From the IMG/VR virus record IMGVR_UViG_3300029577_000149: 7,089 nt of DNA; one strand, 5' to 3'. Position numbers and translations under genes: made by a program. How positions within the stretch are numbered: position 1 is the stretch's first letter; each line of letters begins with the position of its first letter. Under the pieces are notes generated by a model. It had not been told where the DNA came from and ran no database searches. It was given only the letters and a program-made list of their open reading frames with translations. This stretch comes from a virus (Duplodnaviria > Heunggongvirae > Uroviricota > Caudoviricetes). Of this stretch, positions 877 to 5,851 are shown in pieces.

Positions 877-1239
877 TTAATGACCTGCTGCGCGGAGTTT
901 TCCGTCAGGTTCACCGGCAAGAGTCAGTAATTGTCCCTGGTCTTCCTGCAGAATAGTCAGGCGACCACCGCGATTGACATACATCGGCGTTTCGGTGGTG
1001 TCTTCTTCGGAAATTTTCCCGCGGTTAGTCGGGCGAACATATGAGAGTTTGTGTTTGATTTTCACACGGTTCTCATCAAACGGTTCGATTTCCAGGTTGA
1101 GCGAGACCTTACCTTTGGTTTTCGTGTTCATCACACCGGAAGCGACTTCACTGAGAACTGCGCCGATTTTGGTTTCAAATACGCCGCCGTCCAGCTCCCC
1201 GATAAATGCCTGCACATCAGTACTGCGTTCGCTAGCCAT
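877..1239 (-). CDS. Prophage early-left operon protein, YfdP-like, 120 aa
   Basis: ORF-track frame 877..1506 (-), but the plausible start is the internal ATG at 1237-1239 (MASERSTDVQAF...), preceded by GAGGAG (plus-strand ctcctc 1247-1252) at 7-nt spacing. The N-terminal extension to 1506 is Arg/Pro/Cys-rich and looks non-coding. Stop TAA at 877-879. Family name from memory only. Confidence 0.6.
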   Translation of the reverse strand: MASERSTDVQAFIGELDGGVFETKIGAVLSEVASGVMNTKTKGKVSLNLEIEPFDENRVKIKHKLSYVRPTNRGKISEEDTTETPMYVNRGGRLTILQEDQGQLLTLAGEPDGKLRAAGH

Positions 1240-1590
1240 TTTGCTGCTCCTCATCATATCGACCCTGCAAGGCCGATTAGTTTCTCCACAAAATAGAGAA
1301 GAACACCTGCGGTGGCAGCCGCCCGGATGGATTGGGTTATGAGCCCGTCGTCCGGTGATGCTCTTCTCTGTTTTGTAAAAACACAGCATAAAGTTGTGGT
1401 GCCGGGTGCCTCCCGGTGCCTGGCGAAGGTTGCACACCAGGCGGGTGGGTATCCACAGAAGGTCGACTGTCAGCCTCAACCTTAACCCGCGTGCGCTGAG
1501 CCGCATTCACCACAACGCTAAGAATTCTCTCTGGTTGAAAATACTTAGCTGTTATGTGCCTGCTTTTAGCCACATCAGGCGAGGTGGACC

Positions 1591-1656: not shown

Positions 1657-2091
1657 ATGTCCGGTAATATCTATACGCTGTACAAATCCCACTGTGAAAA
1701 TGTTGGAAAGTATCGGGGCATTGAAATCAGTGGGGTAGTGTCATCAGTCGAAATAAGCAAAGTTGAATCAAGGGCAACATTACTTACTCTTCTGGACCTT
1801 GTCTTACATGAGCACCGGAAGAAATTCGGCACTCCCTATAATCAGTTGAATGGGAAAAAAGCTCTGGTTCACCTTATTCTGATGAAGCATCACTGGATGC
1901 CAAAACAGATTAATGAGATGAAATTTGATGAACTTCTTCTTTCAATTCAGGATGAACTCACGCTTGATAAAATAAGCGTAACCGCCCAGAAATTTTTAGA
2001 TTATCGAGACTGGAGATCACAAATTCATCACTTTGATGATTTTGACGAAAATGAATGGGATCCTAATTTGTCTGCACAATATCTAAAGTAA
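1657..2091 (+). CDS. Hypothetical protein, 144 aa, AT-rich accessory (moron-like) gene; no family recognised
   Basis: ORF-track 1657..2091 (+). AAGGA Shine-Dalgarno at 1646-1650, 6 nt before the ATG. Hand-counted G+C of about 32-42% in three 60-nt lines inside the gene versus about 58% in a line of the replication region. Acidic C-terminal tail (HHFDDFDENEWDPN). Transcribed against the leftward early operon. Confidence 0.6.
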   Translation: MSGNIYTLYKSHCENVGKYRGIEISGVVSSVEISKVESRATLLTLLDLVLHEHRKKFGTPYNQLNGKKALVHLILMKHHWMPKQINEMKFDELLLSIQDELTLDKISVTAQKFLDYRDWRSQIHHFDDFDENEWDPNLSAQYLK

Positions 2092-2269
2092 CATCCTGTG
2101 ATAAAACCGTGATTTCCTGATCCAGTTTTTTTAAGGAGTCTATTGTTTCCTGTCGATAAGACAGCACTTCACGAAGCTGGTTTATAGCTGCCAGCTTCTT
2201 TGCCATCCACTCGTAAATTTCCTCATTTGTGTATCCGGGTGCGACGATTTTTGGTTCTGTTTTGTGCAT
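2063..2269 (-). CDS. Hypothetical small protein, 68 aa; first gene downstream of the predicted pL; no arginine-rich N-like motif
   Basis: ORF-track 2063..2284 (-) trimmed to the ATG at 2267-2269 (MHKTEPKIVAPGYTNEEIYEW...), with GGAGGTG Shine-Dalgarno (plus-strand cacctcc 2275-2281). Heptad-like, charged C-terminal half. Its 3' end overlaps the 3' end of the 1657..2091 gene by 29 bp. Confidence 0.55.
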   Translation of the reverse strand: MHKTEPKIVAPGYTNEEIYEWMAKKLAAINQLREVLSYRQETIDSLKKLDQEITVLSQDVTLDIVQTN

Positions 2270-2314
2270 TTCACACCTCCTCAAGTTATCAGTTACTTGT
2301 TGATGGGGACCAGA

Positions 2315-2503: not shown

Positions 2504-3178
2504 TTAGGCTTTGATTTTGTATCTTCTTGGTTTTCCTGAGAAAATCACTGTACCAATTATAGAGCAATTACCGTTGATCTTAATGTAAGGCTCAGGCCAG
2601 TTTGGGTTTAACGCTTTGAGATAACGCTGTGTCCCATCTTCTATCAACCTTTTGAAGGTGGTTTCACCTGTATCGTGCATCAATGCAATAACGTCGTCAC
2701 CGTGGCAGGCAGGTACTTCAGGATCGACAAAAATCATGTCTCCCGGGCGGTACTCATCAATCATTGAATCACCTATCACCCGCAAGATATAAGTCATTTC
2801 CCCACAGGGTACAGGGCAGGGATACGTTTCTGCTGTGCTCAAATCAACCTCAGAATATCCAACTTCTTTCCATGCTCCGGCCTGTACCCATGATATGACA
2901 GGGACTAATGTGATTTGTTTATTAGTGATTGAAACATCAGGTTTTTTTGTGATGTTCGTTGTCTGGTGTTCTTGATCGAGCCATCCGACAGGCAGGTCGA
3001 AACATTTTTCGATGTGTCGTGCCATGCTGTCACCGATATTTTTAGTAGCACCATCTCCCATAAACCTGCTGGTCTGGGTTGGCTCGCGATCAATCATAGT
3101 GGCAAAGGAAGAATTCCCGCCAACACCATCTCTCAGTTTTCTGGCGTTAGACCGCCGGATGTCATGGATTGTTTTCAT
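2504..3178 (-). CDS. cI: CI-like prophage repressor with C-terminal S24 (LexA-type) autopeptidase domain, 224 aa
   Basis: ORF-track 2504..3178 (-). C-terminal half carries the S24 hallmarks: candidate Ala-Gly cleavage site (VQAGAW), Ser nucleophile in GDSM, and Lys in TFKRL, alignable by eye to lambda CI and LexA C-terminal domains. Divergent from a Cro-like gene across an operator-bearing intergenic region. Confidence 0.85.
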   Translation of the reverse strand: MKTIHDIRRSNARKLRDGVGGNSSFATMIDREPTQTSRFMGDGATKNIGDSMARHIEKCFDLPVGWLDQEHQTTNITKKPDVSITNKQITLVPVISWVQAGAWKEVGYSEVDLSTAETYPCPVPCGEMTYILRVIGDSMIDEYRPGDMIFVDPEVPACHGDDVIALMHDTGETTFKRLIEDGTQRYLKALNPNWPEPYIKINGNCSIIGTVIFSGKPRRYKIKA

Positions 3179-3193
3179 AACGAAATTAAAACT

Positions 3194-3263
3194 CTTGTAC
3201 CGTTAAGGTACAAGTATCTTGAAGGTTCATTTCAATCATGTAATATGTACACCGGAGGTACAT
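3194..3263. promoter_or_regulatory. OR region: two TGTAC-N7-GTACA operators flanking a candidate pR; possible leaderless pRM
   Basis: Operator 1 at 3194-3214 is a perfect 8-5-8 palindrome (CTTGTACC gttaa GGTACAAG); operator 2 at 3245-3263 is ATGTAC accggag GTACAT. Candidate pR: TTGAAG 3219-3224, 16-bp spacer, TAATAT 3241-3246. On the minus strand TTTAAT sits at -12..-7 relative to the cI ATG, suggesting a leaderless cI mRNA as in lambda pRM. Confidence 0.5.
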
Positions 3264-3500: not shown

Positions 3501-4074
3501 ATGAGGCTAATCGTGGGTAAGCATCACTGGAAAATAGAAAAACAGCCTGAGTGGTACGTGAAAGCTGTCAGAAAAACTATCGCGGCGTTGCCGGGTGGTT
3601 ACGCNNNNNNNNNNNNNNNNNNNNNNNNATGTAACAGAAAACGCTTTATTCAACCGCCTTCGTGCAGATGGCGATCAGATTTTCCCGCTGGGATGGGCAA
3701 TGGTTTTACAGCGTGCTGGTGGCACTCACTTCATTGCTGATGCTGTGGCGCAGTCTGCAAATGGCGTCTTTGTGTCTCTTCCTGACGTCGAGGATGTGGA
3801 CAACGCCGATATTAACCAGCGTCTGCTGGAAGTCATTGAACAGATCGGCAGTTATTCAAAACAGATTCGTTCAGCAATCGAAGACGGTGTAGTGGAACCG
3901 CATGAGAAGACAGCAATTAACGACGAGCTGTATCTCTCAATTTCGAAGCTGCAGGAGCATGCAGCACTTGTCTACAAAATTTTTTGCATTTCAGAAAGTA
4001 ATGACGCCCGCGAGTGTGCAGCTCCGGGCGTCGTGGCGTCGATTGCTTCTGGTTGTGGAGAAACTAACGCATGA
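3501..4074 (+). CDS. YdaT-like (CII-position) regulatory protein, interrupted by a 24-N gap
   Basis: ORF-track 3501..3740 (frame 0, before the gap) and 3595..4074 (frame 1, after the gap) are most simply one gene whose frame across the gap is unknowable. Sits directly after cro as in Rac/CP-933P ydaS-ydaT. Start uncertain: ATG 3501 has no Shine-Dalgarno; GTG 3513 has GAGG at 3503-3506. Family from memory. Confidence 0.5.
3605..3628. other. Run of 24 N (assembly gap or masked bases)
   Basis: Literal n characters at 3605-3628. Confidence 0.95.
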
Positions 4075-4409: not shown

Positions 4410-4429
4410 AGGTCGGTCATGAGCACTAA
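4250..4429 (+). CDS. Alternate-frame coding segment (-1 relative to the 4071 ORF): either the true C-terminus of a frameshifted gene or a separate small TTG-initiated gene
   Basis: Own translation of frame 2: [62 protein letters not shown], stop TAA 4427-4429. AAGGAG at 4236-4241 lies 8 nt before TTG 4250. The frame opens after TGA 4220-4222. Too short to appear in the ORF track. Confidence 0.35.
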
Positions 4430-5360
4430 ATTAACCGGCTATGTATGGGATGGTTGCGCTGCATCAGGCATGAAGTTATCCAGCGTGGCAATTATGGCCC
4501 GCCTGGCTGATTTCAGTAATGACGAAGGTGTGTGCTGGCCATCAATTGAAACCATTGCCCGTCAGATTGGCGCGGGGATGAGTACCGTCAGAACGGCTAT
4601 CGCACGGCTGGAAGCAGAAGGCTGGTTAACGCGTAAGGCGCGTCGCCAGGGTAACCGCAATGCGTCGAATGTTTATCAGCTTAACGTTGCGAAGCTTCAG
4701 GCAGCGGCATTTTCTCAACTGTCAGATTCTGACCCGTCAAAATCTGACGCATCAAAATCTGACCCGTCAAAATTTGATGCGTCGAAATCTGGCAAAAAAG
4801 CGGGTTTTCACCCGTCAGAATCTGGCGGGGATCCGTCAGTAAAATCAAAACATGATCCGTCAGATAAAAAACCTTCTCGTCCGGACGCTTCGCAACCGGA
4901 CACGCAGACGGCTGAACAGGATTTTTTAACTCGCCATCCTAATGCGGTTGTATTCAGCCCTAAAAAGCGCCAGTGGGGGACGCAGGATGATTTGACCTGC
5001 GCACAGTGGCTCTGGAAAAAAATCATCGCCCTGTACGAGCAGGCTGCCGAATGTGACGGCGAGGTGGTTCGTCCCAAAGAACCGAACTGGACAGCCTGGG
5101 CAAACGAAATTCGCCTGATGTGTGTACAGGATGGGCGTACTCACAAACAAATCTGCGAGATGTACAGCCGCGTCAGCCGCGATCCGTTCTGGTGCCGTAA
5201 CGTGCTCAGCCCGTCGAAGCTGCGGGAAAAATGGGATGAGCTTTCCCTGCGCTTATCGCCGTCCGTCAGCACGTACACCGAAAAACGCGAGGACCCGTAC
5301 TTCAAAGCCAGTTACGACAACGTGGACTACAGCCAGATCCCGGCAGGATTCAGAGGGTGA
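4419..5360 (+). CDS. Phage replication initiation protein (lambda O-like architecture), 313 aa
   Basis: ORF-track 4419..5360 (+), AGAGG Shine-Dalgarno at 4407-4411. N-terminal winged-helix-like segment (WPSIETIARQIGAGMSTVRTAIARLEAEGWL), a central low-complexity repeat linker (DPSKSDASKSDPSKFDASKS) encoded by the iterons, and a Trp/Cys-rich C-terminal domain. Confidence 0.75.
   Translation: MSTKLTGYVWDGCAASGMKLSSVAIMARLADFSNDEGVCWPSIETIARQIGAGMSTVRTAIARLEAEGWLTRKARRQGNRNASNVYQLNVAKLQAAAFSQLSDSDPSKSDASKSDPSKFDASKSGKKAGFHPSESGGDPSVKSKHDPSDKKPSRPDASQPDTQTAEQDFLTRHPNAVVFSPKKRQWGTQDDLTCAQWLWKKIIALYEQAAECDGEVVRPKEPNWTAWANEIRLMCVQDGRTHKQICEMYSRVSRDPFWCRNVLSPSKLREKWDELSLRLSPSVSTYTEKREDPYFKASYDNVDYSQIPAGFRG
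4729..4788 (+). repeat. Four tandem 15-bp iterons inside the replication gene; candidate origin of replication
   Basis: CTGACCCGTCAAAAT (4729-4743), CTGACGCATCAAAAT (4744-4758), CTGACCCGTCAAAAT (4759-4773), TTGATGCGTCGAAAT (4774-4788). Further CCGTCAG copies at 4812, 4833 and 4857, then an A/T-rich tract at about 4840-4872. Same layout as ori-lambda within gene O. Confidence 0.6.
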
Positions 5361-5362
5361 TC

Positions 5363-5851
5363 ATGAGTCTGTTAAATGACGTTCAGAAATTCATTGAAGC
5401 CCATCCGGGGTGTACTTCCGGAGACATTGCGGATGCTTTTGCAGGTTACTCACGGCAGCGCGTTCTGCAGTCTGCAAGCAAGTTACGTCAGAGTGGGCGT
5501 GTGGCTCACCGTTGTGAAGGAGATACACGCAGACATTTCCCGCGCCTGACTGAGAGAGCGCAGGAACCAGAACCACAACCAGTTCGAGAAACCAGACCTG
5601 TGCGCAATTTCTATGTCGGCACTAACGATCCACGGGTGATTTTGTGCCTGACCCGCCAGGCTGAAGAACTGGAGTCCAGGGGCTTATACCGTCGTGCTGC
5701 AACCGTGTGGATGGCGGCATTCCGTGAAAGCCACTCCCAGCCAGAACGAAACAAATTTCTGGCGCGTCGTGAGCTGTGTTTACGGAAAAGCAGCAAGCGC
5801 GCTGTATCGAGTGATGAGTGGTATCTGTCAGGGAATTACGTGGGGGCGTAA
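5363..5851 (+). CDS. PerC-family-like transcriptional regulator with an N-terminal winged-helix-like segment, 162 aa
   Basis: ATG 5363 inside ORF-track 5357..5851; AGAGGG Shine-Dalgarno at 5352-5357; overlaps the upstream stop (TGA 5358-5360). C-terminal motif ELESRGLYRRAATVWMAAF resembles the GLWRRAA-type core I remember for PerC/Pch proteins; unverified. Confidence 0.5.
   Translation: MSLLNDVQKFIEAHPGCTSGDIADAFAGYSRQRVLQSASKLRQSGRVAHRCEGDTRRHFPRLTERAQEPEPQPVRETRPVRNFYVGTNDPRVILCLTRQAEELESRGLYRRAATVWMAAFRESHSQPERNKFLARRELCLRKSSKRAVSSDEWYLSGNYVGA

Follow-up and report, generated by a model that had tools for sequence, protein, structure and literature searches.

The 7,089-nucleotide DNA of IMG/VR virus record IMGVR_UViG_3300029577_000149 (Duplodnaviria; Heunggongvirae; Uroviricota; Caudoviricetes), hereafter the window, carries an exchangeable cassette of two small genes between its early-left genes and the gene for the cI repressor. 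The genes run convergently and overlap at their 3' ends. The + strand gene (A) encodes a protein of 144 amino acids (aa) that belongs to the ECs1072 family, and the - strand gene (B) encodes a 68-aa protein of the YdfC family. The two recur together in diverse phages and very probably constitute a two-gene module that is selected as a pair. As read from the sequence, the cassette is a prophage accessory module in an immunity-region slot, composed of unrecognised families and built to an unusual but conserved convergent design. The role that we favour for it, with a probability of about 40%, is that of an antagonistic pair in which A would be an exclusion or abortive effector expressed in the lysogen and B its neutraliser, produced in the lytic phase. 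The elements of the cassette are as follows.

~1589-2357, no strand: exchangeable cassette (moron slot); alignments with SfV, SfIV and e14 have conserved flanks and a replaced interior
~1589 and ~2357, no strand: cassette junctions, left ...GGCGAGGTGG and right AACGAATCATCC..., from the SfV/SfIV/e14 alignment
1657-2091, + strand: 144-aa gene (A), ECs1072 family, antisense to the pL operon
2063-2269, - strand: 68-aa gene (B), YdfC family, with its ATG at 2269
2063-2091, no strand: 29-bp overlap of the 3' ends of the convergent open reading frames (ORFs) A and B

Both ORFs are taken to be real genes, because their ratios of nonsynonymous to synonymous substitution rates (dN/dS) against the Escherichia albertii copy are low (0.14 over the first 47 codons of B and 0.21-0.24 for A) and because a full-length PHROG family exists for each protein. 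An original prediction, made from the letters of the window, had placed a 144-aa + strand gene and a 68-aa - strand gene here, converging with a 29-bp overlap at 2063-2091 and with the + gene transcribed against the leftward early operon; the ORF coordinates agree, and 1657-2091 is indeed antisense to the pL operon. The AT-richness that it described is real but moderate. The cassette has a G+C content of 40.2%, against 47.7% in the left flank and 50.1% in the right, and the values for the span 1657-2284, the 144-aa gene and positions 1861-2040 are 39.5%, 38.2% and 36.7%, respectively, compared with 58.3% in the sequence line that starts at 5401; cI has 44.7% and the whole window 48.5%.

The 144-aa protein is a full-length member of named families. 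It matches NCBIfam NF033230 ('ECs1072 family phage-associated protein') with 157.8 bits against a cut-off of 70, residues 4-144 aligning to profile positions 2-142, and phrog_5286 over residues 1-144 of 144 (E 1.5e-90). NF033230 is a naming model ('hypoth_equivalog') for hypothetical proteins. A word-indexed search for relatives gave only 14 close ones, and an exhaustive profile search gave 76 cluster representatives, mostly 145-155 aa long. In the family alignment (A4) the conserved positions are R54, G66, A69, H72, W80 and W134. The AlphaFold2 model is all-helical, with a predicted local distance difference test score (pLDDT) of 82 and a predicted template modelling score (pTM) of 0.82. Searches of the protein against Pfam, PDB, BFVD and PADLOC gave no match, and neither did Pfam searches with 42 family members or a search of the family profile against PDB sequences. 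The fold and profile comparisons that the original prediction had proposed as a check therefore name no function: Foldseek returned no significant match for the models, HEPN toxins topping its list at E values of at least 0.84 and template modelling (TM) scores of at most 0.3, and the PDB profile search returned nothing. HD-domain and HEPN leads were discarded. Such weak list entries are no evidence, because their scores are insignificant and neither an HD nor an Rx4-6H motif is among the residues conserved in A4.

Gene B, too, has a family. The - strand ORF at 2284-2063 would encode 73 aa from a TTG; the ATG at 2269, which is also the start called by RefSeq, gives 68 aa and follows by six nucleotides (nt) a Shine-Dalgarno sequence, GAGGAGG (2282-2276). 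The 68-aa protein matches phrog_1744 (E 4.8e-34), the PHROG that also holds YdfC of Escherichia coli K-12 (1.6e-39), and pairwise BLASTP aligns it with YdfC of the K-12 prophage Qin at 39% identity over 66 aa (E 9e-17). In phage genomes, tblastn finds genes called 'ydfC' that are 38-39% identical in PPompW, Evi, Tritos and others. Its AlphaFold2 model consists of an extended N-terminal stretch of 14 residues followed by one long helix at residues 15-67 (pLDDT 85). By these matches the 68-aa protein is a YdfC-family small protein and not an ORFan; Pfam and NCBIfam assign no functional family to it, nor do they to the 144-aa protein. The statement in the original prediction that neither protein belongs to a nameable family is thus superseded by NF033230/phrog_5286 for the one and phrog_1744 (YdfC) for the other, both functionally uncharacterised; YdfC itself has been described as of unknown function (PMC5069750; bioRxiv 2025.03.22.644768). 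The Qin gene ydfC stands third in an operon repressed by DicA, ydfABC-dicF-dicB-ydfD.

A homopolymer lies within the 68-aa gene at 2126-2132 (T7 on the + strand, A7 in the gene). In E. albertii the run is T8, the frame is shifted, the last ~20 residues are replaced and the product has 80 aa; some E. coli and metagenomic variants of B (P0043, P0046) also diverge at the T7 run. The C-terminal third of B may be dispensable, or the run may permit slippage.

The evidence that A and B belong together comes from the genomic context of distant ECs1072-family members in 16 sampled lineages. In all sampled contexts the family gene is antisense to the lytic operon, and partner B is always co-oriented with that operon. 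A YdfC-like gene converges with the family gene and overlaps its 3' end in 11 of the 16, namely E. coli/Shigella (the window), E. albertii L016, Yersinia L005-7, Yersinia L015, Pectobacterium L008/9, the metagenomic or other contigs L011, L017, L026 and L027, Salmonella phage ST64B (Sb50, L023) and Klebsiella phage KPP5665-2 (GP45, L024). Outside this count, P0101 is a 17th lineage with a convergent overlapping gene. The partners share the N-terminal YdfC motif (E/K/Q)P-x-(I/F)-x-(A/N/S)...(E/D/Q)(L/I)-x-x-W-(L/M), and for the distant partners tested, the best of 38,880 PHROGs was phrog_1744 or phrog_3501, two families that are bridged by two partners matching both. The A proteins of the sample are 22-72% identical, those of the paired lineages about 25-72% identical to that of the window, and they stand beside different repressors and flanking genes. 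Three slots are used by the pair: a pL-proximal one in most lineages, a cro-side operon in L011, and the late moron slot between Q and holin in L023, L024 and L027. As an observation apart, the family gene of ST64B is unannotated; it lies at L023:2845-3279 (+), encodes 144 aa and faces sb50.

Within E. coli the association is equally close. Among 5426 complete genomes, A is present in 421 and B in 425, an essentially 1:1 co-occurrence that, together with the pairing across genera and slots, bears out the linkage of the two genes as partners proposed by the original prediction. The recurrence of the pairing in 11 of 16 lineages and in three slots argues that A and B form one functional module, and the constancy of pairing and orientation while the surroundings change argues for selection on the pair and not just linkage. 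The two genes differ in their variation. The 144-aa gene is at least 99% identical in 372 of the 421 genomes, and the 68-aa side is mostly 95-99% identical, reaching at least 99% in only 5 of the 425. This mosaic divergence is reversed in E. albertii, where the A protein is 72% identical and the N-terminus of B ~95%.

The slot itself is exchangeable. In SfV the same junctions enclose orf33 (98 aa, -) and, opposite to it, an unannotated + strand ORF of 81 aa; in e14 they enclose ymfJ (102 aa, -) and, opposite to it, ymfI (113 aa, +). The cassette is one of at least three alternatives for the slot, and all three types are convergent pairs, whose 3' overlaps measure 29 bp in the window, 63 bp in e14 and 83 bp in SfV. 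Sequence similarity among the three pairs is undetectable, and they fall into different PHROGs. Of the 5426 complete E. coli genomes, 1933 match some part of 1500-2500 and ~420 of these carry the cassette. The cassette is replaced in the otherwise collinear SfV and e14 and deviates in composition (40.2% against 48-50% G+C), as a moron would. The original prediction had taken the interval from the early-left genes to cI to be a site of accessory cargo and had suggested comparing it across related prophages; the replacement in SfV and e14 at identical junctions, and the ~420 carriers among 1933 E. coli genomes, are in line with it.

Some further observations concern these cassettes and their relatives. 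The 81-aa ORF of SfV (L002, 3177-3422, +) is a full-length member of phrog_3311 and faces orf33. A relationship between the 68-aa protein and YmfJ of e14, suggested by a shared C-terminal ..IV(Q)TN, was rejected, as BLASTP finds nothing. In Yersinia L005 the interval from the module to cI is occupied by a gene for SieB (PF14163; 5827-6321), which shares the strand of the ECs1072-family gene and is bracketed by one full and one partial copy of the pL leader described below; it illustrates the stacking of cargo in the slot. The Ash-like region of E. albertii L016 (3464-3652) contains isrK and the C4 antisense RNA, a secondary immunity element of the P1/P7 type, both above their Rfam gathering thresholds.

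When each gene would be expressed can be read from the signals around the cassette, which are listed from the repressor side leftward.

2473-2492, - strand: cI terminator (-11.6 kcal/mol, z-score -4.9), an annotated terminator in SfV
2437-2464, - strand: pL-type promoter TTGACA-16-CATAAT with 11/12 consensus matches, directly past the cI terminator
2421-2437 and 2441-2457, no strand: two oL operator-like sites, TGTNY-N6-GGTACA, overlapping pL
2358-2424 (~65 nt), - strand: conserved structured leader with which the pL transcript begins; it doubles as the right-hand cassette junction
2327-2348, + strand: weak candidate terminator, a hairpin (-7.4 to -8.5 kcal/mol, z-score 0.04) with T6, at the right-hand end of the cassette
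2299-2313, - strand: shorter inverted copy of the repeat motif below, CTGGTCCCCATCAAC, between the pL leader and the Shine-Dalgarno sequence of B
1973-1988, - strand: candidate terminator-like hairpin inside A, ~75 nt past the stop of B (-6.6 kcal/mol, z-score -2.8)
1590-1608 and 1624-1641, + strand: direct repeats CTGG(N)TAT(Y)CCCCA(R)CAAC, 15-50 nt upstream of A

The operator-like motif TGTNY-N6-GGTACA occurs elsewhere in the window only at oR, between cI and cro (3196-3212, 3246-3262), and its total of 5 matches compares with 0.03 expected by chance. Because this cI-cro operator motif overlaps the promoter at 2437-2464, the promoter is read as pL/oL and B as the first ORF of the pL transcript; B would therefore be part of the lytic early-left transcript. 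The original prediction had found no family for the 68-aa gene. Its convergence with A stands, but it has a family, that of YdfC, and its position behind an operator-covered pL speaks for membership of the lytic transcript and not for an independent lysogenic partner. The antisense coupling of the partners that the original prediction suggested is plausible.

The pL leader is common to E. coli, e14, SfV, E. albertii, Yersinia and Pectobacterium prophages. RNAalifold folds it into a closing stem and two hairpins, with compensatory changes in 4 pairs, and no Rfam family corresponds to it. Homology to HK022 put was rejected, since a covariance model built from 7 leaders matches SfV and Yersinia L005 and not HK022. 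In these N-less phages the leader may act in cis, for antitermination or for stability. A nut site was considered for a boxA-like sequence, CGCTCTTTGACAA (~2320-2333, -), and rejected because the sequence belongs to the exchangeable interior and is missing from SfV and e14. The hairpin at 2327-2348 persists, with a G-U change, in SfIV and E. albertii, and as a candidate end of the + transcript it could make the transcript of A antisense to the whole 68-aa gene.

The direct repeats upstream of the + gene, noted in the original prediction, are present at both positions, and the additional inverted copy had not been noted before. The same double copy, at L017:4711-4762, precedes an unrelated 166-aa + strand gene, and for this reason the repeat is regarded as an upstream element that is portable. 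In its place, TGnTATnnT, an extended -10-like sequence, is found at the left junction of the e14, SfV, Yersinia and Pectobacterium cassettes and of the family gene in L017. For the e14 cassette there is published expression evidence: ymfJ is induced late in the SOS response, upon derepression from CohE and as strongly as the pR gene ymfM, with ymfI little changed (PMC11002266), and ymfI-ymfJ is among the convergent excludons supported by RNA sequencing (PMC12288877).

With this arrangement, the module might serve to regulate the choice between lysis and lysogeny and play no part against other phages. Leaky transcription from pL would then be damped by the opposing transcription of A, in the manner of an excludon, and A and/or B would tune induction, excision or early gene expression. 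Such a role agrees with the position immediately past pL and a conserved leader RNA, the convergent pairs in all three cassette types of the slot, the listing of ymfI-ymfJ as an excludon (PMC12288877) and the common sequence motif upstream of both genes. It is nonetheless improbable. A core regulator should not be swappable for unrelated protein pairs at the same junctions, nor should it move into the late region between Q and holin, and a recognisable DNA- or RNA-binding domain is found in neither protein.

The simplest functional reading is antagonism between A and B, which would work as follows. In the lysogen, A would be present and B off. A is expected there because it is transcribed against the lytic early-left operon, and B is expected only after induction or infection because it is the first ORF behind the repressor-controlled pL; mutually exclusive expression of the two is, on balance, probable. 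A would act against incoming phages as an exclusion or abortive-infection effector. Once pL fires, convergent transcription through A and the B protein would switch A off, and the prophage's own lytic cycle would be unblocked, according to the logic of SieB and Esc. YdfC-like genes that stand alone in other phages would be anti-exclusion genes. An exclusion role is favoured because the cassette has the classical location of rexAB, sieB and bstA and because SieB adjoins the module in Yersinia L005, although a function in defence or exclusion, taken by itself, is still tentative. A far-reaching extension would make ECs1072 proteins widespread exclusion or abortive effectors of a new fold, YdfC proteins (including that of Qin) their cognate neutralisers, and convergence an obligatory on/off switch that lets the prophage defend its host without blocking its own induction. 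Taken jointly, these claims are doubtful.

Several observations weigh against an effector and its neutraliser. Five of the 16 lineages (L010, L013, Apirhabdus L018, Symbiopectobacterium L019-21 and L028) have no YdfC-like partner. Between the window and E. albertii, B is 94-96% identical over the first 48 aa beside A alleles that are 72% identical, and the two genes are therefore not in tight co-evolution. In the slot between Q and holin, B would be made late, which is awkward for the neutralisation of a pre-existing abortive effector. The + strand terminator at 2327-2348 is weak and not conserved in Yersinia. The search for a consensus sigma-70 promoter of the 144-aa gene was negative, and we infer its lysogenic expression for this reason only from orientation and from one microarray table, in which ECs1072 mRNA is measurable in uninduced O157 Sakai and 2.1-fold lower at the transition to stationary phase (PMC2241611). 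Furthermore, a search of PADLOC-DB v2, of the kind suggested in the original prediction, gave 0 families at E <= 1 for both proteins, and the DefensePredictor supplements contain neither their accession nor the names ECs1072 and YdfC.

The first two of these points agree with another explanation, in which A is a moron prone to insertion behind the leading small gene of a lytic operon, in tail-to-tail orientation, its association with B reflecting linkage and shared ancestry only. The five lineages with A and no YdfC-like partner would then be expected; in Symbiopectobacterium L019-21 a different convergent ORF, of 136 aa, stands opposite the family gene. The other cassettes of the slot likewise pair a + strand gene with an unrelated - strand gene, and the rates at which A and B of the window have diverged from their E. 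albertii counterparts are unequal. What this explanation hardly accounts for is that pairing, orientation and overlap recur at A identities of ~25-30%, with different repressors and flanks and in three slots, which is difficult to explain without selection on the pair. Mere neighbourhood is as improbable as the excludon-type regulation above, and both are less likely than either form of antagonism between the two proteins. YdfC-like genes also occur without an ECs1072-family gene, in Qin and PPompW. The occurrence of A alone in five lineages and of B alone in these two phages fits an effector with a dispensable, portable neutraliser.

The chief competitor to A as effector and B as neutraliser is the same antagonism with its polarity reversed, which fits nearly as well. 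B would be a host-directed lytic effector and A an antidote expressed in the lysogen, the A protein and the antisense transcript neutralising leaky B as well as the B-type proteins of superinfecting relatives. In its operon, which DicA represses, YdfC is accompanied by two division inhibitors, DicF and DicB, and by YdfD, a lysis protein; the pair adjoins a holin in three lineages, and a + transcript that reached 2348 would cover the entire ORF and ribosome-binding site of B. B-type genes are, moreover, ordinary members of lytic operons without A. That last fact cuts both ways, as B without A in Qin and PPompW implies that an antidote is not generally needed. YdfC toxicity is unreported in the literature describing YdfC, A occurs without B in five lineages, and the + strand terminator on which full antisense coverage depends is weak. 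Taken together, this assignment of roles is somewhat unlikely, and B as the neutraliser of A is preferred.

The cassette lies beside the immunity repressor, in the position typical of SieB and RexAB. Homology to SieB, RexA or RexB was not found, as no Pfam family such as PF14163 matched across the 42 family members. Nor does the pair have the layout of a type II toxin-antitoxin system, its genes being convergent, without toxin-antitoxin domains and with non-significant HEPN matches. Literature searches for ECs1072, the WP accessions and SfIV_36 found nothing, and no description of the A-B pairing or of either family's function was found (one 2025 ECOR prophage-defence screen lay outside the scope).

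The immunity and early region of SfIV, a Shigella serotype-converting phage, is 97.6% identical to the window; SfV and many E. coli prophages are further close relatives, one example being a prophage integrated beside tRNA-Thr downstream of proA. By its sequence relationships the window is an SfIV/SfV/e14-type lambdoid immunity region of an E. coli/Shigella prophage. According to annotated relatives, YfdQ/YfdP-type early-left genes (-) are followed by the slot studied here and then by the repressor, past which the + strand carries cro-like, CII-like and O-like replication genes, RusA and others. The repressor gene is as follows.

2504-3178, - strand: LexA-like S24 repressor of the cI/ymfK type, from annotated relatives

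Other observations in the window concern regions outside the cassette. An N run (masked or unknown bases) at ~3571-3597, inside the region of the CII-like (ymfL-type) gene, breaks ORF translations. The gene for O-like replication protein (4419-5360) contains iteron-like repeats (TCAAAATCTGAC...) at ~4720-4800, which specify a repetitive peptide segment, SDxSKSD, and probably constitute the origin of the phage. The stretch 1230-1589 (- strand), which separates the orf32-like gene from the cassette, is conserved, has a G+C content of ~57-60% and contains no clear gene; it includes an inverted repeat (1288-1312 / 1352-1376). Its annotation differs among relatives, as a long ORF extension (SfIV_34/35) or a frameshifted pseudogene, and the window has a 51-bp deletion relative to SfV and SfIV after ~1380. 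A match to Rfam STnc100 at 1395-1514 (-) was set aside, because its 35.6 bits lie under the gathering score of 47 and it was not recovered in related loci.

The module is common, occurring in ~8% of complete E. coli genomes and in SfIV, Salmonella ST64B and Klebsiella phages. Should the pair prove to be a switch of effector and neutraliser, a family with a new fold would join the known defence systems and YdfC would gain its first function. It would also point to a general design rule for the cargo of lambdoid immunity regions, in which a lysogenic gene antisense to the lytic operon faces a partner of the lytic phase. Even if the module is non-defensive, its pairing in three slots offers a testable hypothesis of protein-protein antagonism.

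Among known genes, the closest counterparts are members of the same families. YdfC of Qin is a homologue of the 68-aa protein in the same phrog_1744, and both genes are small and lie close to the promoter of a lytic operon under repressor control; unlike B, YdfC of Qin and of PPompW has no facing ECs1072-family gene. The 144-aa protein is a full-length member of NF033230/phrog_5286, and its conserved pairing with a YdfC-like gene is described here. The e14 ymfI/ymfJ and SfV orf33 pairs resemble the cassette in their junctions and in a + gene that converges with and overlaps the first pL gene; they differ in their PHROGs and have no detectable sequence similarity to it.

Superinfection-exclusion or abortive morons are known beside cI, including RexAB of lambda, SieB of P22 and Rac with its Esc, and BstA of BTP1. 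The cassette shares their neighbourhood, and SieB of Yersinia L005 is also antisense to pL. The proposed logic of a lysogenic effector with a self-immunity factor matches SieB/Esc and BstA/aba. In contrast to those systems, to which it has no homology, its partner is a separate convergent gene on the lytic transcript and not an in-frame product or a DNA element. Excludons and other convergent-transcription switches, such as pR/pL of coliphage 186, are similar in having convergent, overlapping units with expected mutually exclusive expression, although here the overlap is seen in the ORFs and the terminators are candidates only. Finally, type II toxin-antitoxin systems likewise consist of two small linked genes on a mobile element whose proteins are, in the present case, possibly antagonistic. 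The cassette differs from them in being convergent rather than a co-directional autoregulated operon, with one partner placed under a lytic promoter.

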